DNA of 64,000 nt from contig JBGASK010000004.1 of the NCBI GenBank assembly GCA_044229785.1, forward strand, positions 138 through 64,137. Reading direction: 5' to 3'. The notes beneath the pieces are model-generated. The model had not been told where the DNA came from. It did not search any database and was given only the letters and a program-made list of their open reading frames with translations. The position numbers were made by a program, and so were the translations under genes. The DNA is from Ahniellaceae bacterium (lineage in GTDB: Bacteria > Pseudomonadota > Gammaproteobacteria > Xanthomonadales > Ahniellaceae). Of this stretch, positions 9,873 through 21,992 are shown piece after piece (the stretch's first letter is position 1; each line of letters starts with the position of its first letter).

Positions 9873-10710
9873 TCCGGAACCTTCCATGCAGATCCGCATC
9901 CAGCACCTCGACAAACACTACGGCCGATATCCCGCGCTGCGCGGCGTCGATCTCGACATCCGTTCCGGCGAGCTGATCGCCCTGCTCGGGCCGTCCGGTT
10001 CCGGCAAGACGACCTTGCTGCGCGCCATCGCCGGACTGGAAACGGTTAATGGCGGCCGCATCCGCTTCGGCGAGCGCGACGCCACCACGCTCAGCGTGCA
10101 GGAACGCCGGGTCGGCTTCGTGTTCCAGCACTACGCCTTGTTCCGGCACATGTCGGTGCTCGACAACGTCGCCTTCGGACTGAATTGCCGACCGCGCCGC
10201 GACCGTCCGGCGCGTGCCGACATCGAACGCCGTGCGCTGGACTTGCTGGCGCGCGTGCAGCTCGCGGACCTGCGCGATCGTTTGCCCGACCAGTTGTCCG
10301 GCGGACAGCGGCAGCGCGTGGCGCTGGCGCGCGCGATGGCGATCGATCCGACCGTGCTGCTGCTCGACGAACCTTTCGGTGCGCTCGATGCGAAAGTGCG
10401 CGTCGAGCTGCGGCGCTGGCTGCGCGAAATTCACGACGCCACCGGCTACACCACGGTCTTCGTCACCCACGACCAGGACGAAGCGCTGGAACTGGCCGAC
10501 CGCGTCGTCGTGATGAATGGCGGACGCATCGAACAGATCGGCACGCCGGACGAGATCTACGCACAGCCGGCCACACCGTTCGTGTTCGATTTCGTCGGAC
10601 GTTCGAACCGCTTGCGCGGTCGCGTCGACCAGGGCCGCTTCCGGCCCCACGGCCAATCGCGGTCCTGGGCCTTGCCGGAACCGCTCGCGGATGGCCCGGC
10701 GCAGCTGTTC

Positions 10711-10718
10711 GTGCGTCC
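10711..10718. repeat. Target-site duplication copy 1 (GTGCGTCC)
   Basis: An identical octamer abuts the other end of the element at 17834-17841. Confidence 0.85.
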
Positions 10719-10740
10719 GGTAGTGGGTCAGTTTGAAATC
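10719..10740. repeat. Terminal inverted repeat, transposase-proximal (GGTAGTGGGTCAGTTTGAAATC)
   Basis: Reverse-complementary to 17812-17833 with one mismatch. It begins GGTAGTG, fitting the GGnnnTG termini I recall for the IS1 family. Confidence 0.85.
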
Positions 10741-11585
10741 TTCCGGGTCTGATGCTCGTCGATGATCCTCACCATGTCCTCCAATGAGAGGAGATACGGG
10801 GTCACTCCAGCCGCCATCGCCGGTGTCACACGCAGCGATTGGTGAATGCGGACGAAGTTGTAATGCATCATGTAGATCGCGATTGCGTACACATGGTTCT
10901 CCAGTTTCTTGGAGAACGCGTTTGTCAACCGCGTGAAGCGGCGGATCGACATGCGCATCGTCAGGTTCTGCCGCTCGACGAAGCTCGTCGATAGGTGCGC
11001 CATGTCCGGAGCGCCGGTGACGACTTGTTTCAGGACGCCCGTGCATTCGGCGGGGCTGTACCGCCGATCGTTGTCGCGTCCATCAGGGGCGCCGTACACC
11101 TTTATAAGTACCCCGTAATCGATGCCCGCGCCGAACACATCCTCGACGGCCTGCAGATACGCCTTATTGCCGTCAGTCGTGAGTTGTACTCGGCTGGCGA
11201 GCCGCGCAGCCAGGTCCGTCATGAATGCTTGTGCTGCGTCGGCATCGCGCGTGCCCACGTGCCAGCACGGAATCACCTTGGTGTCGGCGCAGATGGCAGT
11301 CCAAGTCCACACATCGCCGGCCTCGCCGGCGGCCTTCATCAAGGCAGGTGCGTTCTTGGCCTTGGCATACACGAAAGACCAGATTTCGTCGCATTGGATC
11401 CGCTTGCAAGGCAGGTTTCTCAGCATTCGATCCTGGTAGTCCAGGAACGCATTCCCGGCCTCGACCAAGAGCTTGACGATCGTGTTCTTGCTCGCGCCCG
11501 TGGTGCGCGAGATCGACCGAATCGACATGCCCTCAACCATGAGGCCAAGAACCGCAGCGCGTTTTTGAATGGACAGTTTGTTCAT
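10728..11585 (-). CDS. IS1-family transposase (single ORF, DDE type)
   Basis: 285 aa. N-terminal HTH ([21 protein letters not shown]). Conserved blocks [67 protein letters not shown] and [19 protein letters not shown] match remembered bacterial proteins annotated as IS1-family transposases. Confidence 0.85.
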
Positions 11586-11632
11586 GCCAGCCGGACATGA
11601 CCCTTATGCTTGAGAACAGTTTCAACTCGGAC

Positions 11633-11647
11633 TTCATTGCCAATGAA
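11633..11647. promoter_or_regulatory. Perfect palindrome TTCATTG-C-CAATGAA, copy A, 48 bp upstream of the transposase ATG
   Basis: Seen directly. The 24-nt context (11633-11656) matches copy B at 21/24. The 11-mer ATGCTTGAGAA at 11606-11616 is also shared with the copy B region. Confidence 0.45.
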
Positions 11648-11880
11648 CATCGCAGGCACGAAGAAACGATGCCATTGACTTCAGGCTGGCGAAGTTGAAC
11701 AAGAAAGGGATTTATGCGAGGCTGTCACCCGGTGGTTCAGCGCCACCGGGTGAGGCCTCTTACGCTATGCAGCAGTAGTGGCTGTTCACCGAAGATATCC
11801 TCCTTTCGCAGGCATTCCCGCTGCGCTCGGGTTGGGTGGTTGGACGCCCCCTCTTTCTCAAGACATCGTCGCTGATCGAA

Positions 11881-11919
11881 GCCCAGCCCCATTGCCGTGG
11901 GGCTGGGCGTTCACTTTTT
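11881..11919 (-). terminator. GC-rich hairpin immediately after the stop of the HTH-like gene; possibly bidirectional
   Basis: GCCCAGCCCC-attgccgt-GGGGCTGGGC (11881-11908). On the plus strand it is followed by cacTTTTT. On the minus strand it lies directly 3' of the stop at 11911-11913, but without a clear U-tract. Confidence 0.45.
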
Positions 11920-12360
11920 GGAACTGGTCAACGACCAGCCAAGCTTGCGATCCGGAGTGAACAGCGGATTACCGCTCAAAATCCGCGCAATTGTCTGCTG
12001 TCGATCCTTCCCACCGACGTCGACCTGACGCCGTGTCAGTTCTGCCAAGAGATCCGCAGTGCGGTGCGGTCGGCCGTCCTTCAGGACATCGATCACGGCT
12101 TGAAGAATCTGCTTCCGCGCCGAATCCGGGCGGCCGCCCGACGCTGCTGCAGTAGCGGAAAAGGTTGTCGGACTCAGCGATGCAGATGATCTGGATTTCT
12201 GCTGCCCTGTTTGGCCACCCACCGCAGGCTCTTCCTGTAGAGCAGCGTAGGCGGCAAGGAACTGCCGCAACGCATCTCGCCGACCATTCAGACGCTGGAA
12301 TTCATTCTCGATGGCATCCAGTTCCTTGCGATAGCGCTCAATATCCACCAAATCGGTCAT
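11911..12360 (-). CDS. Small coiled-coil plus winged-helix (HARE-HTH-like) putative DNA-binding protein, passenger gene
   Basis: Start chosen at MTDLV (GAGGG RBS about 6 nt upstream). N-terminal heptad-like segment (IERYRKELDAIENEFQRLNGRRDALRQFL), then a low-complexity linker. The C-terminal ILQAVIDVLKDGRPHRTADLLAELT...IARILSGNPLFTPDRKLGWSL resembles the HARE-HTH pattern from memory. Confidence 0.5.
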   Translation of the reverse strand: MTDLVDIERYRKELDAIENEFQRLNGRRDALRQFLAAYAALQEEPAVGGQTGQQKSRSSASLSPTTFSATAAASGGRPDSARKQILQAVIDVLKDGRPHRTADLLAELTRRQVDVGGKDRQQTIARILSGNPLFTPDRKLGWSLTSSKK

Positions 12361-12441
12361 GCCCGCCCTCATTGAATTCATGGGGATCGTAACAGTCCAT
12401 CGAACTCGTGGATAGAGGAAACAGAGAGGAAATGCCCATGA

Positions 12442-12456
12442 TTCATTGCCAATGAA
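12442..12456. promoter_or_regulatory. Perfect palindrome TTCATTG-C-CAATGAA, copy B, in the divergent region between the HTH-like gene and the secreted-protein operon
   Basis: 82 bp upstream of the ATG at 12360 (minus strand) and 177 bp upstream of the ATG at 12633 (plus strand). It is followed at 12467-12487 by a second palindrome, ATGCTTGAG-aag-CTCAAGCAT. Confidence 0.45.
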
Positions 12457-12632
12457 TATGGGAGGAATGCTTGAGAAGCTCAAGCATTCGGATCGAATCG
12501 CGCCGCAGGTTCGACATCATTTCTCTCCATGACGAGCAAGATGTCAGAACTGACAGGGCTCGATTGAACATGGGGGAATTTGGGCGGAACGTGCCTGTGC
12601 TAGGGTGGATCGAACATCGAAAGGAGGCGGTG

Positions 12633-13670
12633 ATGGTCAAGTCGTCGGCACGGAACTTATTGCTTGCCGTGGTTGCGGCTCTTGCCCCATCCAGCGAGCT
12701 GTTCGCCTCTGAGTCCTGTGGCATCACGCTCACGCTTCTCAAATCCGGTTTCGAGACCGGAGAGCAGCCGCAGTATGCGGAAGTGCCGCCCGACAACACG
12801 CCCCTGTCCGTCGTCGTCGATTATCCTCCGGATGGCCTGGTCACCGCAGCGCCGAACGTACAGGTCTATGGCAGCCTTACCGGGCCGCCAAATACGGGCG
12901 TCGTGGTGAATGGCAAGGTTGTCGTCAACAACGCGACGAAGTACACCAGCCAACTGATCCCGTTGACGCTGGGCGCGAACACGATCACGGTGACGGCGAC
13001 CACCCAGGACGGTGCGATCCAATCGGTCTCGCGAACCGTCCATTACAACCCGAGTGCGGCGAACCCGGTCCGATTCGTCGGCGTAACCGCAGCCGATTTC
13101 GCGCCGCTGCGAATTCCGTTCACGCTCCAAGCCGCGCCACCGCCCGGACAACCGACGATCACCCGCGTTCAAATCGACTTGGACGGCGACGCCACCTTCG
13201 ATTCGGACAGCGCGAGCATCCCGTCCAACATCGCCCGCGACTATGCTGTTCCGGGCGTCTATCTTGCTCGTGCACGCGTGACCTTCGACGATGGCGACGG
13301 GATGACGCCGCCCGTCGTCCACGAATCGACCTTCCGCGTCCAGATGCACCAACTCGCCTACACGCGTGAGGTGCTGTGCACGGTGTACTACGCGATGAAA
13401 CATCGGCTTCAGGCCAACAACATCGCGAGCGCGTTGAACACCATCGCCACCGACAAGCGGAACCAGTACCAGACCATGTGGACCGCGGCCGGCGGCAACC
13501 TGCCAACGATTGCGACAGGGCTCGGCGACATCGCGCTGGGCAGAATCGCGGACATCAGCGCCGAATTGACCATGGCGGTGCCCGACGACGCAAATCCCGG
13601 CGAGTACCTGGGCTTCCCAGTGATGTTGGCAAGGGATGCGACCGGCGTCTGGCGCATCACCGGCATGTAA
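12633..13670 (+). CDS. Secreted protein with Ig/PKD-like beta-sandwich region, passenger gene
   Basis: AGGAGG RBS then ATG. Signal peptide MVKSSARNLLLAVVAALAPSSELFA. Middle region is rich in T/V/N beta-strand repeats with DLDGDATFDSD (PKD-like). The C-terminal about 100 aa is unassigned. Confidence 0.6.
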   Translation: MVKSSARNLLLAVVAALAPSSELFASESCGITLTLLKSGFETGEQPQYAEVPPDNTPLSVVVDYPPDGLVTAAPNVQVYGSLTGPPNTGVVVNGKVVVNNATKYTSQLIPLTLGANTITVTATTQDGAIQSVSRTVHYNPSAANPVRFVGVTAADFAPLRIPFTLQAAPPPGQPTITRVQIDLDGDATFDSDSASIPSNIARDYAVPGVYLARARVTFDDGDGMTPPVVHESTFRVQMHQLAYTREVLCTVYYAMKHRLQANNIASALNTIATDKRNQYQTMWTAAGGNLPTIATGLGDIALGRIADISAELTMAVPDDANPGEYLGFPVMLARDATGVWRITGM

Positions 13671-13682
13671 ACGGAGAGTCCC

Positions 13683-14672
13683 ATGCGTTACTGGTTCTGG
13701 TTGATCGCCCTGCTGCTACCGGCGCTTGCCGCCTGCAGCAACAGCGACTGCAAACTGCGCGTCAACGGCATCTGCTACGACAAGCAGCGGGAATCGGATC
13801 CGCCATTGAAGGCTCGCTGGCAGATTTTTGATGCCGACAGCGGCAAGCCGCTGGAAGGCGTGTGGATCAATTTCCTGTGGTACGGCAAGTCCGATTCGCG
13901 CGGCATGAGGCGTTGTGTCGGGGCCGTACTCGGTCGCACGGATGCCGACGGTATTTTCGAAGCCACGGCCAAGGACGGCAGCTGGCGCTTCGGTGGCCAG
14001 CCGCCCACGCTGTTCAAGCGCGACTATCAGCCGTTGCAGTACAAGTTCTGGGGTATGCAAACCGATGTCGCGACCGCGAACGTCGATGTTCAGTACTACG
14101 AACGCGATGCCTACCCTGCCTGGTTCAAGCGACTGGAAGCGCTCGGCTACAAGCATGTCGATGAAGGCGGAACGACGACGCACTACGACAAGAAGTACTC
14201 GACAGCGCTGATCAAGGACGGCATGGGACAGCACCCGTATGCCGAAGGTGGCCGCAAAGAGTTCTGGGTGACGCGACGAACCCTTCCGGCATACGCATCG
14301 GCGCCCGGGGTTGGCGCCATGTGCAAGTACGCGACCACCGACAATGTGGGATTCGACGAAGCGACGCTGCGGCTGCTGAGCTATGAGCGCGCAATGCACG
14401 CCTATACCTACCTATGCGATCCGCAGTGGGACACGATTCCTGCCGACTACAAGCGCACCTCGTCTCGCATTTTCGTACATCAGTCGCTGTGGCTTCTGAA
14501 CGACGAGGAGCATTCATTCAATCGCGCATTGAAGATCATTCCCGACTACCTCGGCGGGCCCTACAAGGCGTTGGACAGTGAAGACAGAGCACTTCGGCCC
14601 GAAGAACGGATTGCACTGTGTGACTGGCTTGCCCCGTACACGCAGGCACCCACCAAGAGCATGGAGCCGTGA
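13683..14672 (+). CDS. Lipoprotein, passenger gene (possible CarboxypepD_reg-like N-terminal sandwich)
   Basis: Lipobox LPALAAC after a hydrophobic leader, with a GGAGAG RBS. The segment FDADSGKPLEGVWINF...GRTDADGIFEA resembles carboxypeptidase-regulatory-like domains. The rest is unassigned. Confidence 0.6.
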   Translation: MRYWFWLIALLLPALAACSNSDCKLRVNGICYDKQRESDPPLKARWQIFDADSGKPLEGVWINFLWYGKSDSRGMRRCVGAVLGRTDADGIFEATAKDGSWRFGGQPPTLFKRDYQPLQYKFWGMQTDVATANVDVQYYERDAYPAWFKRLEALGYKHVDEGGTTTHYDKKYSTALIKDGMGQHPYAEGGRKEFWVTRRTLPAYASAPGVGAMCKYATTDNVGFDEATLRLLSYERAMHAYTYLCDPQWDTIPADYKRTSSRIFVHQSLWLLNDEEHSFNRALKIIPDYLGGPYKALDSEDRALRPEERIALCDWLAPYTQAPTKSMEP

Positions 14673-14673
14673 T

Positions 14674-17457
14674 ATGAGGACATGGATATTGCTGCTTGCG
14701 GCGGTTACCTCGGCGCACGCCTATGAAGTCGATACGCATGGCCGCATGACACAGACCGTCTACGAACGCTCTGTGCTGACCACCGACGCAGATCTATTGC
14801 GGCGACTGGGCTTCGATCGGCTCGAACTACAGAAACCGTTCCGGATGCCTTGGGAGCAGACGCCATGTTTACCGGGAATCGGTTCGCCGCTAATCGATTC
14901 CTATCCAGATGCCGCTGGCGATTGGCAGGGGCAAGCATTCGATGCGGATGTCTACTCGCGATGCCCAGACAGCTATGAAAAGCGGCTGATGCCCCCGGAA
15001 TACTCCGGGAGAATCGGGCCGCCGCCTTCGTTGGGTAACACGCCTGAGCTGCGAATAGCGGCTTGGTTGATGCGCGGCGCAATCCGAGAGGACGATCTGG
15101 TTAGCGGGAACTACTACGACCCGGCCGATGCGCCTGATGCCAGTCCTTGGGGCGAAATCGATCGTCCTACGCACCACTTCTACAGCCCCGTCACGAACAC
15201 ATCGGACGGTGCATTTACCCAAAGTGCATTGCCTTGGGCATTGGGGCAAGCCGACCCTTTCGCTGCCAGCCCTGCGCCAGATCCAGATCGGGACAATCAC
15301 TTCTCCTATGCCGACGCCGTGCGCAACTATGACCTGGCGCTGCGATTCAAAAGTAGCGGACCCGTCACTCGGAGCGTTTCCGAATCCGATGCCCGCGCTC
15401 GAGCGTCGTTGTGGGCTGGTGCGCTTATCTCGCTCGGCCACACGGCGCATCTGCTTCAGGACATGGCCCAGCCCCAGCATGTGCGTGGCGAAGCCCACAA
15501 CTACCTGTGCCGCGGCTTTCTGAGCAACTTCAATCAGGACGTGGCCAACCGCACTTACGAGAACTTCTCGAACTTCCGGGTCACTGACGTCTATAACCGA
15601 ACTGTCGTGCAGGCAGGCGGTACGGATACCTATATCGCGACCAATGCTTGCGAAGAACAGGAATGGCTGGACTTGTTCGCCGAAGCCGGATACTCCCCGC
15701 CGCCGGCACCTACGCCATTCACCAGCAGCAGCTACCCGATTCCATCGTTCACACTGGCTCGGAAGTTCTTCACGACGCGAAACGCCGGCGACCCAACGAC
15801 ATCAGCCGGACTCGGCGGTGCAATCAATAGTCGCGCAGGATTGGCCGACTACACCAATCGCGGTTTCTATTCGCAGGACTACGGTGCTGGCGCCTATCTC
15901 AGTCCGCCAGTACCGGGAGGTCCCGAACTCGTTCAGGGCGACATGGCTGCAACCATCGTTCCTGGACTCGGCACGCTGCATTTGCGCGCCTTGTACTGGC
16001 CTGTGCCCGATGTCGTCGCGCCGGGTTACGCAGATACCGGTCGCGATGCACAGGGACGCGCGCCGATCGCTTCGATGAGTTACTGGTCCTATCGTGGAAT
16101 CCCCACATCAAGCGTGGTGCTATCTCTCGCCAACTACACCCAGATGGCCGACATGCTGGGCCCAAGAGCCATTGCCTACAGCGCCGGTCTGGTCAACTAC
16201 TTCTTCCGCGGAAAGCTCGACGTTGAGGTTCCCGACATGACGCTGATTGCCGTCGTGAATCAAGGCGAGACGCACAGCGTCGATGTTGACGGCTATCCGC
16301 GCCGCCCAGACCAATCCATCTTTGGATTCACAAAGGTGCGATTGAAGGTGCGCAATGCGACTGCCGAGATCATCGAATCCGGCAGCGCCGCGCATTCGGT
16401 GCAGAACGCCAGCAACGGTCAACTGGTTGCCGTCGCCCGATACCACCGAAACGCTTGCTACAAGACCGATCTCAGCGGACAACGCACTCAGGGTTACGCT
16501 GCGATGCCGCCGGCACCGATCACGGTTCCGACGTGTACTGCCGCACTGCCCGAGCGTACCGATTACGAAGAGATCTCGGTCTCGACGCCGATCGCGATCT
16601 CGGGCGGCAACGCGTTGCCTGGCATGGTCGGCGCAACGTCTCCAGCATGGGTCGACAAGGTTTTCGATTTTGGTGCCGATCCCATCCCGATCAACGCGAC
16701 CGACCTGTTCATCCAAGTCGTCTATCGCGGCCAGTTGGGTGATGAACCTGATGGCGTTGCAGTCGGACGCCTGGACGTGCGTGAACCGACGTTTATCGCT
16801 GCGTACAACGGCAGCGATCATCGCTGGACGGGAACAGCTTGGGCACCAGGCAGCATCGGCACCACCACACGAGCTGCCGACATCTTCCACCTGTGCGGCG
16901 GAAGCCCAACGACAAAGCTGCTATATCGCAATGCGAATGCTCCTGCTCTGCGCTATTCAGTCGGCGCGTCGCCGCCAGATGCCGTTCGACTCGGAATCAT
17001 TACGACGGCGCCAGCCGGCAATCGCGTTTTTCGTGCACAACCAGTAATGATTCCGTCGCCGAGCGCCGAATATCGTATCTTCACGACCAAGGGAGCGATT
17101 CGCCAGGCGGGTCGCGAAGCGATTTCGCTGTCGACAACAGCCACGGACTGCACCGGCGAGCCCGTTGCTGGTGCGGATGTGTGGTGCAACACGCCGTCGC
17201 AACGGCGACGTGGGCAGATTCTTGGTGATGCACAACAAGCGGTCTATTACGCGCCGATCGGGTCGAATGCGTCCATCGATGTCGATGCAGCCGGGCTACC
17301 CGCATATTCGTCGCTCGTCGTTCGCAACGATGGCGAGAACCGGTTCCATGACGAAACGCTGGTCAACTGCCCATCGCCACCCGCACTGACTCAAGAGCAA
17401 GAGGAATTGATCAAGTTGCTTGAAGAGGCAGCTGCATTGGATCTCGGCGTGAACTGA
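14674..17457 (+). CDS. Large secreted protein with N-terminal zinc-dependent phospholipase C / P1-nuclease-fold domain, passenger gene
   Basis: Start MRTWILLLAAVTSAHA (signal peptide) lies 1 nt after the previous stop. The mature N-terminus YEVDTHGRMTQ, IREDD, THHFYSP and GHTAHLLQDMAQPQHVRGEAHNY line up with the Zn-ligand motifs of bacterial zinc PLCs: (W/Y)..THA, DHFWDP, HYLGD..QPMH. The about 600-aa C-terminal region is unassigned. Confidence 0.6.
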   Translation: MRTWILLLAAVTSAHAYEVDTHGRMTQTVYERSVLTTDADLLRRLGFDRLELQKPFRMPWEQTPCLPGIGSPLIDSYPDAAGDWQGQAFDADVYSRCPDSYEKRLMPPEYSGRIGPPPSLGNTPELRIAAWLMRGAIREDDLVSGNYYDPADAPDASPWGEIDRPTHHFYSPVTNTSDGAFTQSALPWALGQADPFAASPAPDPDRDNHFSYADAVRNYDLALRFKSSGPVTRSVSESDARARASLWAGALISLGHTAHLLQDMAQPQHVRGEAHNYLCRGFLSNFNQDVANRTYENFSNFRVTDVYNRTVVQAGGTDTYIATNACEEQEWLDLFAEAGYSPPPAPTPFTSSSYPIPSFTLARKFFTTRNAGDPTTSAGLGGAINSRAGLADYTNRGFYSQDYGAGAYLSPPVPGGPELVQGDMAATIVPGLGTLHLRALYWPVPDVVAPGYADTGRDAQGRAPIASMSYWSYRGIPTSSVVLSLANYTQMADMLGPRAIAYSAGLVNYFFRGKLDVEVPDMTLIAVVNQGETHSVDVDGYPRRPDQSIFGFTKVRLKVRNATAEIIESGSAAHSVQNASNGQLVAVARYHRNACYKTDLSGQRTQGYAAMPPAPITVPTCTAALPERTDYEEISVSTPIAISGGNALPGMVGATSPAWVDKVFDFGADPIPINATDLFIQVVYRGQLGDEPDGVAVGRLDVREPTFIAAYNGSDHRWTGTAWAPGSIGTTTRAADIFHLCGGSPTTKLLYRNANAPALRYSVGASPPDAVRLGIITTAPAGNRVFRAQPVMIPSPSAEYRIFTTKGAIRQAGREAISLSTTATDCTGEPVAGADVWCNTPSQRRRGQILGDAQQAVYYAPIGSNASIDVDAAGLPAYSSLVVRNDGENRFHDETLVNCPSPPALTQEQEELIKLLEEAAALDLGVN

Positions 17458-17528
17458 ATCAGGGTCACGACTCGGCGAAATGGAAGGCAGAGGAAAGCGA
17501 TGTCCGTCGACCAATCTGGGATGCTGAA

Positions 17529-17765
17529 CTACTTACGCTTCGTCCATCGAGCTAGGGCAGCCTTTTTGGCGATCTCGCTACGTCGCTTTGCGGACAAGCT
17601 TTCTGCGCGTGCAGGGCCACCTAATTGACCGCCAAGCTTGCCTCTGTCGACGGCCTTGGGATCCTTCCCGTCGTCCACAGAGTCCACGACTTGCCCAGTA
17701 GCGATGTCGCCTATCAACTTGGCCAAGGCAACAGAATCTCTCGGTCGTTGGATGCGCTTTCCCAT
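17529..17765 (-). CDS. Small basic protein with C-terminal RRSEIAKKAALARW motif, passenger gene
   Basis: 78 aa. The pattern GG..GG.ARAESLS..RRSEIAKKAA.ARW recurs in many small proteobacterial hypothetical proteins (memory). Function unknown. Confidence 0.5.
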   Translation of the reverse strand: MGKRIQRPRDSVALAKLIGDIATGQVVDSVDDGKDPKAVDRGKLGGQLGGPARAESLSAKRRSEIAKKAALARWTKRK

Positions 17766-17811
17766 GAATCAAGCTTGGCACATGGGGCATTCCGAGGCCA
17801 GACCAGGGAGG

Positions 17812-17833
17812 GATTTGAAACTGACCCACTACC
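17812..17833. repeat. Terminal inverted repeat, transposase-distal (GATTTGAAACTGACCCACTACC)
   Basis: Reverse complement is GGTAGTGGGTCAGTTTCAAATC, which matches 10719-10740 at 21/22. Confidence 0.85.
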
Positions 17834-17841
17834 GTGCGTCC
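17834..17841. repeat. Target-site duplication copy 2 (GTGCGTCC)
   Basis: Identical to 10711-10718 and directly abuts the distal IR. Confidence 0.85.
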
Positions 17842-18058
17842 GCACGACTTGCGCCTCGACCCGCGCGACGACGGGCTCGACGCCGTCGTGCAACAGGTGC
17901 GCCGACGCGCGGACCGACACGTGCTGAGCGTGCAGGTCGCCGGCCAGGACGCGCCCTTCGATCTCGATCTCCCGGTCCATGCCGACGCAATCGTGCCTGC
18001 ACCCGGTGCGCAGCTGCAGGTCGGCGCCACGCGGTATCGCGTCTTCGCGAGCGCCTGA
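17834..18058 (+). pseudogene. cysA 3' fragment (C-terminal regulatory/TOBE-like domain)
   Basis: (V)RPHDLRLDPRDDGLDAVVQQVRRRADRHVLSVQVAG...RYRVFASA continues the LFVRP of the 5' part in the same frame once 10719-17841 is removed. G+C returns to the flank level here. Confidence 0.85.
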
Positions 18059-18211
18059 TTCGTCTTGACTGAAATAGCGGCTTGCCAAACCGTGTCCGCT
18101 CCAATAGTGTCGGAACGTCACGCAATGTGACACGGGCGGAGTGGTGCCGGGGGGCACTCCATTAGTTTTCCGCTCCAGTTGAGGTTCAACCAATGGAACT
18201 GAACGAAGTAA

Positions 18212-18251
18212 GCTCCCTCGCTCCCTCGCTCCCTCGCTCCCTCGCTCCCTC
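18212..18251. repeat. Perfect tandem repeat, 5 copies of the 8-bp unit GCTCCCTC
   Basis: Read directly: gctccctc x5, ending 90 bp upstream of the TTG start at 18341. Confidence 0.95.
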
Positions 18252-18340
18252 TAGTTCGTGATGAGAGTCTGGATTCGGACGCGATTCTTGGTAACGATGT
18301 TCTGAATGCAGCTGCTGGCGGATTTTCCGTTTCGCGGGGA

Positions 18341-19024
18341 TTGAGTTTGGCAACGGCACTGGCACTGTTGATCAGCGCCTGGTCCCCGACAGTCGGCGCG
18401 TCGGATTCAACGACAGCCTGCGATGGCATTCCTGCTGGCGACGTTTGTGCCCAAGGACCACAAGTCCCGGTATCGCCTATTGATCGAGACCAATGGGTGC
18501 CGAGGGTCTTCCCAGACTTCCCGGATATTGGGTTCGACGACGACGAGAGCAGCTTCACTCCCGATGGATATGCTTCTTCATACCAGCAACTGACATGTGC
18601 GGAATGGACAAGCACAAATCTGAATTCGCTCCCCGACGGGTGCTCATCTTCGAATCCGCCACTCGCGGTCTCCCCCTCCGATCCACCTTGTGGTCCCGAC
18701 GGGAGCTGGGTCTCGCAATATCTACCGCAAACGGTCGCGGATGCTTGTGTGGCTCACGATGTTTGCTACAGCCAGTTGAATGGCGACAAAGATCGGTGCG
18801 ACGACGCATTTGATGGAAACTTGCTGCTCACCTGTGAGCGACAGTTTCCGTACCATTGGATTGTCCCATTGGATGCCGGATATCTCGCTTGCGTCAGTCA
18901 GGTCACAAGCTACTCGGCCGCTGTCCGACTGCCCTGGGCTAGCTCGCGATTCCAGGAGCTTCAGCGAGAAGCGCAGTGTAGGCAATGGCATCAGCGACGA
19001 GAGAACGAATCCGATTGCTCGTGA
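18341..19024 (+). CDS. Secreted cysteine-rich protein with phospholipase A2-like catalytic motif
   Basis: Signal peptide (M)SLATALALLISAWSPTVGA from a TTG start after GGGGA. ACVAHDVCY...DRCDDAFDGNLLLTC resembles the secreted-PLA2 C..HD.C(Y) ... C.CD..F..CL core (for example bee-venom group III). 11 Cys in the mature part. Confidence 0.5.
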   Translation: MSLATALALLISAWSPTVGASDSTTACDGIPAGDVCAQGPQVPVSPIDRDQWVPRVFPDFPDIGFDDDESSFTPDGYASSYQQLTCAEWTSTNLNSLPDGCSSSNPPLAVSPSDPPCGPDGSWVSQYLPQTVADACVAHDVCYSQLNGDKDRCDDAFDGNLLLTCERQFPYHWIVPLDAGYLACVSQVTSYSAAVRLPWASSRFQELQREAQCRQWHQRRENESDCS

Positions 19025-19091
19025 TCGATTTGGACTGTCTGTGCGCGATCGCGCGTGACGTGGTCGCGTACTTCACCAAGGAGAAACTCCA

Positions 19092-19976
19092 ATGAAACGA
19101 GCCATGACATTGCTCGGCGTGTCGGCATTTGTGCTGGTCGTGTATCTGGCAAGTCAACAATCGACTCGGCAAGTCGATATCAGCGATAGTGCTCCGGGCC
19201 ACTCGGACGAAGGTGAGCAATCGGATGCCAATAGCGAAGCGATGAACACGCATGCGCTGCAAGCCGGGGGCGAAACACTCGCGGTGCGCGATGGAGGACG
19301 AACAAATCCCTCCTATTACCTGAAGCCTCGACCCATCGAAGCGGTACATCTTGGTTTCCGGCCCGAGCCTGGTTCATTGCCGCTGGCACTACCACCCACC
19401 TCCCAGAAGAAGCGCTATCCGGGCGAACTGGAAGCTCGTACTCCGGAAGAGGCGGCCTGGCTGGACAGGCATGGATATCCAACGCAGGAAGAGCTTGACG
19501 CGCTTGATGCAATGACGGAACTGGAACTGGCGGAGAGGGCGGCGAGAGGCGATCTCGCAGCGATGGCATTGCTGGGCGAGAAGCAATTGCGCCAAGGCAA
19601 GATCGTCGAAGGCCAAAGCAACCTCAATGAATCGGCAATGCTTGGTTCGATCTGGGCAATATTGGCGCTGGCCGATTCGCAGAAAGCGCGCGGAAACACG
19701 ATAGGCGCCATAGAGTTGTACCAACTTGCCGCGTTGCGTGGTGATTGGCTTTCACCGTCGTTGCACATGCAAACTGGACTTCGCAAGGAAATCAAGACAG
19801 CGGAGTTGCTCTTCACGCCCGGAAACGTGGCGACCTTGTTCGCCAATATGCAGCGGCTGCGGGCACTGAGAGGCCTCCCTCCGTTGGGAGTGGAGACTCG
19901 GCCCAACCCATTCAATCGCCCGGGTGGGGACGATCCAGTCGGCGTATACCCGCGGAGTCGTGCGAACGCCAATTGA
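19092..19976 (+). CDS. Membrane-anchored protein with Sel1/TPR-like helical repeats
   Basis: GGAGAA RBS. N-terminal TM anchor (LLGVSAFVLVVYLA). Repeat-like segments ERAARGDLAAMALLGEKQLRQGK and AIELYQLAALRGDW. The family assignment is tentative. Confidence 0.5.
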   Translation: MKRAMTLLGVSAFVLVVYLASQQSTRQVDISDSAPGHSDEGEQSDANSEAMNTHALQAGGETLAVRDGGRTNPSYYLKPRPIEAVHLGFRPEPGSLPLALPPTSQKKRYPGELEARTPEEAAWLDRHGYPTQEELDALDAMTELELAERAARGDLAAMALLGEKQLRQGKIVEGQSNLNESAMLGSIWAILALADSQKARGNTIGAIELYQLAALRGDWLSPSLHMQTGLRKEIKTAELLFTPGNVATLFANMQRLRALRGLPPLGVETRPNPFNRPGGDDPVGVYPRSRANAN

Positions 19977-19994
19977 ATCGCTCGAGGTGTTCGC

Positions 19995-21047
19995 ATGACG
20001 CTAACCTTTTTCGGCGGACTGCCAGGTGCACCGTGTCGGGTCACCGTATTGCCAAGTCCGATCAAGAATGCCTGGCTACCCGATCACCGCGCGGCCTGGA
20101 GGGAATTGGCGGGCGAATTCACAAGTCTGCCTGACATTGCCCAGCGAACATGTTGGTGGTTCGCTCTGTCGATATTGTCAAAGTCCGACTGCGCGTCGAG
20201 TTGTATGGTCCGTCTGTCTCCCGCTCGCCGCCGCGCAGACCCGTCGAAGCAGCATTGGATCGACTCGATCGATCGGATCGCATCAGCTGACGGCATTGTC
20301 GATGGTCAGACGATGTTGCAATGGCGCGAAACCCTTCTCGGTCGGACACGAGCAGCATGGCGAACCGGCGGCGTCAGGTTCGGCGTGGCAGCGGACGGCG
20401 TCAACGATCTCTGCTTCTGTGTTGACGCCGACGCTGTTCCAGACCTGATTGCGGATTGGAGTGCATTCGTAGCGCAGCACAAGGGAGATCCTGGCGCAGC
20501 CTTGGTCGCCTTTCGGCAACTCGTGCTCATTCATCCGTTTCCCGATGGAAATGGGCGAATGGCCCGAGTGGTCGTCGCCCATTTGACAGCGGCTTGCGGA
20601 TTGCCGAGATTGCTGATGATGCCTGCGCTAGCGTTGTTTCGTGCGCGAAACGACGGCGACCGTGCGGACTACAGCACGGCCTTCGCTTCGGGCGACGCAT
20701 CGTTGTTCAGCCGCTTCGTCCTCGACCGAACCAAGCGCCTCTTGTCTACAGCTCGACAGCTCGCGCCTCGAATCGAGCGCGCTGTCGCCGATAATCTCCC
20801 GCCGGCCGCTCCCGGCTCATTTCCGTCGTTGCTGAATCGGCGACTGTCGGAGTGGCCCGTGGTTGCTGTGGAAGAACTGTCGAGGATCGGACGATGTAGC
20901 GCGCGTAACGTGCATCGGTGGTGCGAAACCTATGCAGGCAGCGGCGGATTTTCATACGACGGCTCGCAACTGGTGTGGCGCTCGCTGTTGGAAGATCTCG
21001 ATCGAATTGAACCGGAGTTCTGGGCTCCAGTCAGGGATTCGTTCTGA
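19995..21047 (+). CDS. Fic-domain protein (AMPylase-type motif)
   Basis: Canonical Fic motif HPFPDGNGRMAR, with a GAGGTG RBS. No [ST]xxxE[GN] inhibitory motif is found anywhere in the 350 aa. Confidence 0.75.
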   Translation: MTLTFFGGLPGAPCRVTVLPSPIKNAWLPDHRAAWRELAGEFTSLPDIAQRTCWWFALSILSKSDCASSCMVRLSPARRRADPSKQHWIDSIDRIASADGIVDGQTMLQWRETLLGRTRAAWRTGGVRFGVAADGVNDLCFCVDADAVPDLIADWSAFVAQHKGDPGAALVAFRQLVLIHPFPDGNGRMARVVVAHLTAACGLPRLLMMPALALFRARNDGDRADYSTAFASGDASLFSRFVLDRTKRLLSTARQLAPRIERAVADNLPPAAPGSFPSLLNRRLSEWPVVAVEELSRIGRCSARNVHRWCETYAGSGGFSYDGSQLVWRSLLEDLDRIEPEFWAPVRDSF

Positions 21048-21071
21048 ACGATCTTGAAGTCGGGAGGGCGG

Positions 21072-21992
21072 CTACCTGCGCGAAAGGCTGGCGACTGCAG
21101 AACCGATCACGACCACGGCGGCGCCGGCGTAGCCGAGTGCGGTGATGGTTTCCGGCGGAACGAGCGCCGGATTCAAACGGTGCGCGATCTCGACCGAGAC
21201 GACGGTGAGCAGCGGCGTCAGCGCCAGCACCACGCCGACGCGCGACGCTTCCCAGTGCGCCAGCGCTTCCGCGAAGGCGCCGTAGGCGGCGACGGTATTG
21301 ATCAGGCAGTAACCGAGCGCGATCGTGTGCACGGTGTCGAGCCCGACGAGCTGCGCGGGCGATGCGAACGGCGTCAGCAGCACGGCGGAGATCGCATAGA
21401 TCGCCATCATCACCGCGCCCGAGCCGAGGTGCTGCAGCATCTGCTTTTGCGCCAGCGCGTACACCGCCCAGACCACGGCCGCGACCAGCACGATGGCGGC
21501 GCCGAGCAGATAACGATCCGTCGGCACCGCGGAATGGCGGGATTGATCGAGCGCGAACAGGCCGAGTCCGATCGCCACCGCGGCGACGCCCGCCCACTGC
21601 AACGCATTGAAGCGCTCGCGGAAGACGACGATGCCGCCGATCGACATCAGCAGCGGCGCGGCCTGAATCAGCAGCTGCGCATTCGCCGGCGTGGTGTAGT
21701 GCAAGCCGATGGTGTAACCCACGAAGTTGCCGATCAGCATCACCGCGGCGAGCAGCAGCAACCACCCGCCGCTGCGCGGCAGCCCGCGGAACTGGGCGAA
21801 ACCGCCGCGCCATGCGGTCCACAGCGCCAGCATCAGCGCCGCCGCGACGAAGCGCGACCAGATCAGCGTCCACACGTCGATGTGTTCGATGACGAGGCGA
21901 ATCGCGATCGGCAAGGTGGCCCAGAACACGGCGGTGGTGATGGCCAGCGGCAGACCGATCTGCCAGCGGCCGGTGGCTTGGTGCAAGGCCAT
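21072..21992 (-). CDS. EamA/DMT-family transporter
   Basis: 306 aa with about 10 TM segments and two EamA-like halves. G+C returns to the core level. Confidence 0.85.
   Translation of the reverse strand: MALHQATGRWQIGLPLAITTAVFWATLPIAIRLVIEHIDVWTLIWSRFVAAALMLALWTAWRGGFAQFRGLPRSGGWLLLLAAVMLIGNFVGYTIGLHYTTPANAQLLIQAAPLLMSIGGIVVFRERFNALQWAGVAAVAIGLGLFALDQSRHSAVPTDRYLLGAAIVLVAAVVWAVYALAQKQMLQHLGSGAVMMAIYAISAVLLTPFASPAQLVGLDTVHTIALGYCLINTVAAYGAFAEALAHWEASRVGVVLALTPLLTVVSVEIAHRLNPALVPPETITALGYAGAAVVVIGSAVASLSRR

Follow-up and report, generated by a model that had tools for sequence, protein, structure and literature searches.

The stretch analysed here, called the window below, comprises 64,000 nucleotides (nt) of contig JBGASK010000004.1 from an Ahniellaceae bacterium (assembly GCA_044229785.1). 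It contains an sbp-cysT-cysW-cysA operon of which the last gene, cysA, is split by a mobile element of 7,115 bp, measured from inverted repeat (IR) to inverted repeat (10719-17833). This element encodes one transposase and several genes with no evident role in transposition. The features that define it and its insertion point are the following.

9886-10718, + strand: interrupted cysA (sulfate ABC transporter ATPase), 5′ part, codons 1-278
10711-10718: target-site duplication, left copy, GTGCGTCC, single-copy in the empty sites of six related contigs (L095-L100)
10719-10740, + strand: terminal inverted repeat IRR, transposase-proximal, GGTAGTGGGTCAGTTTGAAATC, including the transposase stop codon
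10728-11585, − strand: tnp, single open reading frame (ORF) for an IS1-family DDE transposase of 285 residues, with an N-terminal helix-turn-helix (HTH) and candidate catalytic residues D66, D138, and E204
17812-17833, − strand: terminal inverted repeat IRL, transposase-distal, 21/22 identical to IRR
17834-17841: target-site duplication, right copy, GTGCGTCC
17842-18058, + strand: interrupted cysA, 3′ part (C-terminal regulatory domain)

The two 22-nt repeats are the only copies in the window, even when up to three mismatches are allowed, and at this stringency no match occurred in 100 shuffles. Each arm directly adjoins the octamer GTGCGTCC. When 10719-17841 is removed, a CysA protein of 349 residues is regained, reading ...AQLFVRPHDLRLDP..., and this reconstituted protein aligns end to end and without gaps with the intact CysA of relatives (98.3-98.9% identity). 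The element has a G+C content of 0.593, while the core DNA on its two sides has 0.670 and 0.692. An earlier note, based on the letters of the stretch, had already described the pair of repeats, the octamer beside both arms, the in-frame rejoining of cysA, and the lower G+C content, and all of these were found again here. Taken by themselves, the letters of the window are equally compatible with a 10-bp duplication and a 21-nt repeat. This reading was rejected on the evidence of relatives. Indeed, 47 of them show unambiguous 8-bp duplications and tips starting with GGTAGTG, and the 8-bp duplication is therefore the right reading.

The insertion cuts CysA after residue 278 and adds 10 residues encoded by the repeat, with loss of the C-terminal regulatory domain. 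The resulting product of 288 residues is recorded as P0132 in the protein collection. The filled cysA allele was found in no fewer than seven samples or assemblies independent of one another, and it is therefore tolerated. The host is an uncultured gammaproteobacterium, and the closest named relatives of its CysA are found in Xanthomonadaceae/Lysobacterales (62-65% identity).

Empty sites were sought by following the reconstituted CysA to its 90%-identity cluster of intact proteins, and from there to contigs L095-L100. In these six contigs from close relatives, cysA is intact and has GTGCGTCC exactly once where the element is inserted in the window (...CTGTTCGTGCGTCCGCACGAC...), with 96-98% nucleotide identity to the window on either side. 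Copies of the element were also found at other sites. The identical transposase is encoded on 10 contigs, six of which have the cysA junction in common, while three others (L083, L084, and L088) leave the window sequence exactly after ...CACTACC and enter three unrelated flanks, L084 carrying 4 kb of the same cargo at its other site. A 91%-identical relative (L103/L107) adds one more flank. On the IRL side, contigs that encode an identical copy of the 78-residue protein located next to this repeat, together with the start of the 927-residue passenger protein, show five other flanks (L114, L115, L118, L119/L123, and L120), the break lying exactly before GGTAGTG. The octamers on this side match no octamer on the IRR side, and about nine insertion sites are therefore represented. 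In copies found elsewhere, the transposase is 100% identical and the DNA 99.9% identical to the window. Finally, L111 is a complete relative of 7,105 bp with 86% nucleotide identity, having the same six genes in the same order and flanked by its own 8-bp duplication, CGATTTCC. Since the element is found at many sites with its cargo between the same ends, the 7.1-kb unit transposes with its cargo, and the near-identity of copies at different sites shows this transposition to be recent. A plasmid copy of the whole element was sought by megablast in PLSDB, with no match.

The organization is that of a transporter insertion sequence (tIS): a single pair of repeats encloses one insertion sequence (IS)-type transposase and its passengers, the duplication lies outside all of these, and the cargo moves with the ends, as seen in L111, in L084, and at the five IRL junctions linked to the gene for the 927-residue protein. 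A composite transposon was rejected, given one transposase gene and two copies only of the repeat in the window. Thus, the segment 10719-17833 is very probably one autonomous tIS of the IS1 family, belonging to a single-ORF, passenger-carrying branch. The earlier note had proposed a larger, probably still mobile, cargo-bearing IS1-family tIS. It had also named three observations that would speak against it, namely empty sites lacking a single octamer, the same block elsewhere without the repeats, and a second repeat beside the transposase. All three were looked for. Empty sites hold a single GTGCGTCC at the insertion point in the intact cysA of L095-L100, the blocks at other loci always end at these repeats, and next to the transposase there is only a 12-nt partial similarity to the inner segment of the repeat (CAGTTTCAACTC, 11618-11629, upstream of tnp), devoid of the GGTAGTG tip. 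These three results support the proposal.

Species-representative genomes (GTDB) were then used to define the family. A scan with the transposase gave more than 551 loci across many phyla, the best at 66% identity, and 80 of these loci were fetched for delimitation of the elements. Sixty were complete elements of 1,817-7,478 bp (median 3,013), which with the window element make up the 61 elements compared below. In the 60 relatives, the tip GGTAGTGnnTCAGTTTGA is nearly invariant at both ends, the family end consensus is GGTAGTGg.TCAGTTTGA, and the 8-bp duplication is perfect in 47. No element is shorter than twice the length that the transposase requires; hence, passenger DNA is the rule. The predominant cargo families of the relatives are HTH_3, ImmA/IrrE peptidase, P63C, SocA/Panacea, DNA methylase, NotI, HNH, AbiEii-like ATPase, and Fic. 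Two relatives were rejected as equally large, since nested IS256-like and rve-type elements account for the size of L013 (7.09 kb) and another element of the family, nested inside it, for that of L029 (7.5 kb). The largest genuine cargo in the sample is therefore that of the window element and L111, the next largest relatives measuring 5.4, 4.9, and 4.8 kb. Elements of the family also insert into one another (L026, 7951-13230; L029, 3324-10891; L013, 7788-14877). In L026, the element sits at the very tip of its neighbour, and its duplication, GTGGTAGT, overlaps the repeat of that neighbour.

Clustering of the ORFs of the 61 elements gave two ubiquitous genes, that of the transposase and that of a protein of about 75-100 residues. 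In the window, the latter corresponds to the following feature.

17529-17765, − strand: small basic core protein, 78 residues, first gene inside IRL, on the transposase strand

The small core gene starts about 65 nt inside IRL, on the same strand as the transposase gene. A profile of its product gave matches in 57 of the 61 elements, the median distance between the end of the gene and the IRL tip being 317 nt. The protein is Cys-free, has 913 homologous clusters, and gave no match when the 78-residue sequence was compared with Pfam and NCBIfam. Its consensus reads KRPRD.NQLAK.IVDIATGE, then an acidic linker, then GKNPAAVALGRLGGLKGGKARA..LS.E.R.EIAKKAA.ARW. On Mesorhizobium loti plasmid CP050295, a homologue is annotated as “histone H1,” two genes upstream of an “IS1 family transposase.” The layout of the family is IRL, small gene, variable cargo slot, transposase gene with its stop codon in or near IRR, and IRR. 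By its position, the small protein is analogous to InsA of IS1, and it may act as a DNA-binding regulator or co-factor. The earlier note had counted five non-transposition genes; four stand as passengers, and the fifth, the 78-residue ORF, is a core gene. The motif R.EIAKKAA.ARW, C-terminal in the small protein, is also found N-terminally in cargo proteins of about 330 residues, encoded on the opposite strand in some relatives (L055, 8908-9909; L005, 8900-9910; L024, element ORF 694-1671, − strand).

The tnp gene is the sole transposase gene of the element, which has no second transposase gene and no further repeat inside. Its TGA stop codon at 10728-10730 lies within IRR, and a single IS1-family ORF of 285 residues ending in the repeat is indeed what the earlier note had reported. 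D66, D138, and E204 are conserved across 61 relatives. The protein reaches 28.1 bits with Pfam PF03400 (DDE_Tnp_IS1; gathering score 24.1), and longer homologues are also above the gathering score of this model. Its C-terminal E-region, containing ERxNLxxR...SFSK, aligns with IS1 InsB (37% over 46 residues, E=4e-6). Plasmid homologues with 57-59% identity are labelled “IS1 family transposase” by PGAP, and weak additional matches to IS6/IS240 models were obtained. According to ISfinder, IS1-family ends begin with GGnnnTG. Both ends of the element begin with GGTAGTG, and the 8-bp duplication is within the 8-9 bp of IS1. The canonical insA/insB′ frameshift layout is absent, the transposase being encoded by one uninterrupted ORF, and there is only one Cys in the N-terminal 60 residues, hence no zinc finger. 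The single ORF and the lack of a zinc finger therefore exclude the canonical IS1 group but not the single-ORF subgroups. ISfinder includes a single-ORF, passenger-carrying IS1 subgroup, ISMhu11, with members listed at up to about 4.6 kb. Literature searches on ISMhu11 and on IS1-family tIS returned general definitions of tIS only, and the name ISMhu11 was not found. A phmmer search with the transposase against 1.84 billion representatives retrieved 1,769 clusters at E<=1e-30. Among the homologues (P0391, P0407-P0510), many are 43-48% identical and 400-670 residues long, their IS1-like domain being C-terminal, after an N-terminal extension of up to about 400 residues without Pfam match.

Upstream of tnp, the family shares a sequence motif, of which the window element keeps a part.

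11586-11910, − strand: tnp upstream region, with TCAAGCATAAG at 11603-11613 (− strand), a remnant of the promoter/operator-like family motif

The hexamer GCTTGA is present upstream of tnp in 37 of the 61 elements, vs. 35 of 1112 control windows (3%). The motif, typically GCTTGAC-N-GTCAAGCATAAT at about 30-60 nt from the transposase start, looks like a promoter in which a palindrome would overlap the -35 and -10 regions. A scan of the element for sigma-70 consensus sequences found no promoter, and a search of 10000-21500 for RNA families (Rfam, gathering threshold) found none. A strong hairpin with a 12-bp stem containing 9 G-C pairs (11881-11908) is located directly downstream of the passenger gene orf149, between this gene and the sequence upstream of tnp.

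Between the two core genes, about 5.9 kb are occupied by four passenger genes.

11911-12360, − strand: orf149, 149 residues (longest ORF 190 residues)
12633-13670, + strand: p345, secreted protein with an Ig-like Glucodextran_B domain, predicted signal peptide
13683-14672, + strand: lipo329, predicted lipoprotein, lipobox LAAC
14674-17457, + strand: p927, secreted protein of 927 residues with a signal peptide, a putative N-terminal phospholipase C (PLC)/P1-nuclease-like domain, then beta-sandwich domains

The orf149 gene is present in every copy of the window-type element and absent from the wider family. PADLOC gave a weak LmuB-like match for its product (E=1.6e-4), which we do not take for a defence system; nothing beyond this match was obtained with PADLOC for all six proteins of the element. 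The Glucodextran_B assignment of p345 is based on Pfam PF09136 (37.8 bits, cut-off 27). Neither lipo329 (329 residues) nor p927 matched Pfam or NCBIfam. The most variable gene of the element is lipo329. In L084 and L085, where the other genes are 99-100% identical to those of the window, lipo329 is only 79% identical and corresponds to the L111-type allele (L084, 35-1021; L085, 146-1132; L111, 2993-3982), showing that variants of the element have recombined with each other. The lipoprotein gene (13683-14672) is a hot spot of such recombination.

The p927 family comprises about 100 clusters without annotation, with cultured members in Ahniella and Chiayiivirga. Its invariant residues are H6, D124/D125, H152, H243, D247, H253, H259, and E280 (mature numbering). 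A profile search of PDB sequences produced one weak match, to Listeria phospholipase C (8cqm, E=0.18), with the aligned segments HFYdP/HFYNP, LGxvvHLlQDmAqPQH/LGLAIHYYTDISQPMH, and YENY/YENY. The phospholipase C-like motifs of p927 are thus HFYxP, HxxxDxxQPxH, and YEN. AlphaFold2 gave confident models, with a pLDDT of 90 when the entire protein was modelled and of 89 with the N-domain by itself. Because beta-sandwich matches (transglutaminase C-domains) dominated a Foldseek search with the whole protein, the N-domain was modelled and searched separately. Of its 22 matches, 21 were Bacillus cereus PC-PLC, clostridial alpha-toxins, Listeria PLC, or S1/P1 nucleases, the sole exception being 6m32_A. 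With the zinc-dependent PLC/P1 nuclease superfamily (PC-PLC, alpha-toxin, PlcB, S1/P1), p927 appears to have in common a conserved His/Asp/Glu pattern, HFYxP, HxxxDxxQPxH, and an all-helical N-domain. The relationship is very distant (12-16% identity, E 0.07 or worse, TM 0.2-0.3), and in p927 a domain of about 400 residues with large insertions is followed by about 500 residues of beta-sandwich. We conclude that the N-domain is probably a distant trinuclear-zinc phospholipase C/P1-nuclease-type domain. The cargo would then have an enzymatic activity, and lipids are a plausible target of p927, the chances being about even between this and nuclease or other phosphoesterase activity. Of the secreted lipid-targeting module suggested in the earlier note, the secreted nature stands, as judged from the signal peptides and the lipobox, while lipid targeting is a weak deduction from a distant domain.

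The trio p345-lipo329-p927 is also found, at 66-78% protein identity, in L108, L112, and L113. It is located beside Tn7-like TniQ/TniB genes in L112 (5954-10796) and L113 (5055-9897), and beside IS21 in L108 (5936-10751). Its occurrence next to Tn7-like and IS21 genes elsewhere therefore makes it a mobile module in its own right.

By extension from IS1 and from DDE enzymes in general, the following transposition chemistry can be proposed. The DDE transposase, with its HTH and D66/D138/E204, would recognize the two near-identical 22-nt ends and move everything between them as a unit. The target would be cut with a stagger of 8 bp, giving rise to the GTGCGTCC duplication. In the window, the element landed in codon 278 of cysA.

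Several points weigh against this reading of the element and its cargo. The NCBIfam IS1 equivalog NF033558 scores 60.4 bits where 100 are required, and identity to canonical IS1 does not extend beyond the catalytic motifs; Pfam, the rules for ends and duplication, and the names given by PGAP are what places the transposase in IS1 over a sister family. In the window copy, the GCTTGA(C) -35-like motif is missing and the TCAAGCATAAG half only is kept, and the expression of this copy is therefore uncertain. It may also be long resident, because the cysA insertion is common to many samples and to the recombinant L085. Neither excised circles nor transposition events were seen directly. As to the cargo, the Foldseek matches of the p927 N-domain are weak (E 0.07-9, TM 0.2-0.3), and Pfam PF00882 gives no match to p927.

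Three other explanations were considered. The transposase could be that of an unnamed family of its own, related to IS1, IS6, and IS1595 but distinct from IS1 proper, in keeping with the NCBIfam score of 60 against a cut-off of 100, the weak IS6/IS240 matches, the absence of both the InsA zinc finger and the frameshift, and the additional conserved small gene, which has no counterpart in canonical IS1. Against this, the Pfam DDE_Tnp_IS1 score exceeds the gathering score, also for longer homologues, the GGnnnTG ends and 8-bp duplication are those of IS1, the E-region aligns with InsB, PGAP labels the homologues as IS1 family, and single-ORF, passenger-carrying IS1 subgroups already exist in ISfinder. 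On balance, a separate family is unlikely. Still less likely is a genuine element of which the window copy would now be immobile and fixed in its lineage, the junctions reflecting past activity of sister copies. The cysA insertion, which recurs in seven samples or more and also in L085, a recombinant variant, would fit such a copy, as would the missing GCTTGA -35-like motif, but its transposase ORF is intact, its ends are 21/22 identical with a perfect duplication, and a 100%-identical transposase and 99.9%-identical DNA are found at other sites. It is even harder to maintain that the true IS is only the transposase end, of about 1.2 kb, with a chance or orphan distal repeat and 6 kb of merely adjacent DNA. 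The position of the transposase gene at one extreme end and the 12-nt partial match to the inner repeat segment upstream of tnp are in line with a short IS. Yet this match lacks the GGTAGTG tip and no second repeat exists within three mismatches, 57 of 61 relatives conserve the distal end together with its adjacent small ORF, the six genes recur between the same ends in L111, which has an 8-bp duplication of its own, and IRL junctions are linked to the p927 gene at five other sites. The short IS is extremely improbable and effectively already refuted.

The tIS of the window can be compared with several known systems. With the ISMhu11 group of ISfinder, it shares IS1-type DDE motifs, GGnnnTG ends, the 8-bp duplication, the single ORF, and passengers inside the repeats, but it is larger (7.1 kb vs. 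an upper size of about 4.6 kb in the group). Relatives typically carry small cargo of HTH, toxin-antitoxin, or restriction type, whereas the window element carries a secreted-protein module. Canonical IS1 (Escherichia coli IS1A) has the same GGnnnTG ends, 8-9-bp duplications, and motifs DE.W, TDG, and ERxNLxxR...SFSK, and its insA is located, like the small gene of the window element, at the IRL end, reading inward. In contrast, canonical IS1 measures 768 bp, its insA and insB′ being joined through a -1 frameshift and its InsA having a zinc finger. In the window element, a single ORF encodes a transposase that has an HTH of its own but lacks a zinc finger, the small protein is unrelated and Cys-free, and the two genes are separated by kilobases of cargo. 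More generally, tIS are an established category, with passenger-carrying members in IS1595, IS6 (ISDsp3), and other families (PMC9330008, PMC7986276). The plan is the same, an IS-type transposase and passengers within one pair of repeats being moved as a unit. Most described tIS contain one or two small genes, vs. four passengers and about 5.9 kb in the window element, and unlike in tIS in general, cargo is the rule and not the exception in its clade.

Hence, the element is a genuine, recently mobile, and unusually large IS1-like tIS of an established class, not a new type of element. It extends the practical size range of IS1-family tIS and is an unusually clean natural case in which an IS-type transposase moves, as one unit, non-transposition genes amounting to about 6 kb. 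For this case, public data provide the filled and the empty sites as well as several independent insertions. It also illustrates a secreted-protein module spread by at least two unrelated types of transposon. The arrangement of small protein, cargo slot, and transposase offers a simple rule by which similar elements can be delimited in their hundreds. In current annotation, these appear only as an isolated “IS1 family transposase” beside “hypothetical” or “histone H1” genes. The searchable literature gave no account of the small gene and its conservation, of a cargo slot that is near-universal, of how broad the clade is, or of a module shared with Tn7-like elements.

Taken jointly, these features might point to an undescribed, very large, modular IS1-like clade with a recombining cargo slot, a small-protein co-factor or regulator, and competition-module cargo, although as a whole this picture is tentative and rather doubtful. 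Such a clade would comprise the more than 550 loci in species-representative genomes of many phyla and the 1,769 transposase clusters at E<=1e-30. The gene for the basic protein of about 75 residues at IRL and the transposase gene at IRR may bracket a dedicated cargo slot, the contents of which, mostly HTH, toxin-antitoxin, or restriction-like, may be swapped by recombination between copies. The small protein may be a previously unrecognized transposition co-factor or regulator. The cargo of the window element may represent an inter-bacterial competition module, made up of a phospholipase-like toxin and a fast-evolving lipoprotein partner, and this module may be shuttled between IS1-like and Tn7-like vehicles.

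Finally, a second insertion of about 3.0 kb (18059-21070), with a low G+C content of 0.585, separates the stop codon of cysA from eamA, a convergent gene. At this position, the empty-site relatives have 6-8 nt only. No inverted repeats or target duplication were seen at the borders of this insertion. It encodes a protein of 227 residues with a CxxHDxCY motif and a weak match to secretory PLA2 (E=0.003), a protein of 294 residues without family match, and a Fic-domain protein (31.7 bits). At its left edge, the octamer GCTCCCTC is repeated five times in tandem (18212-18251).

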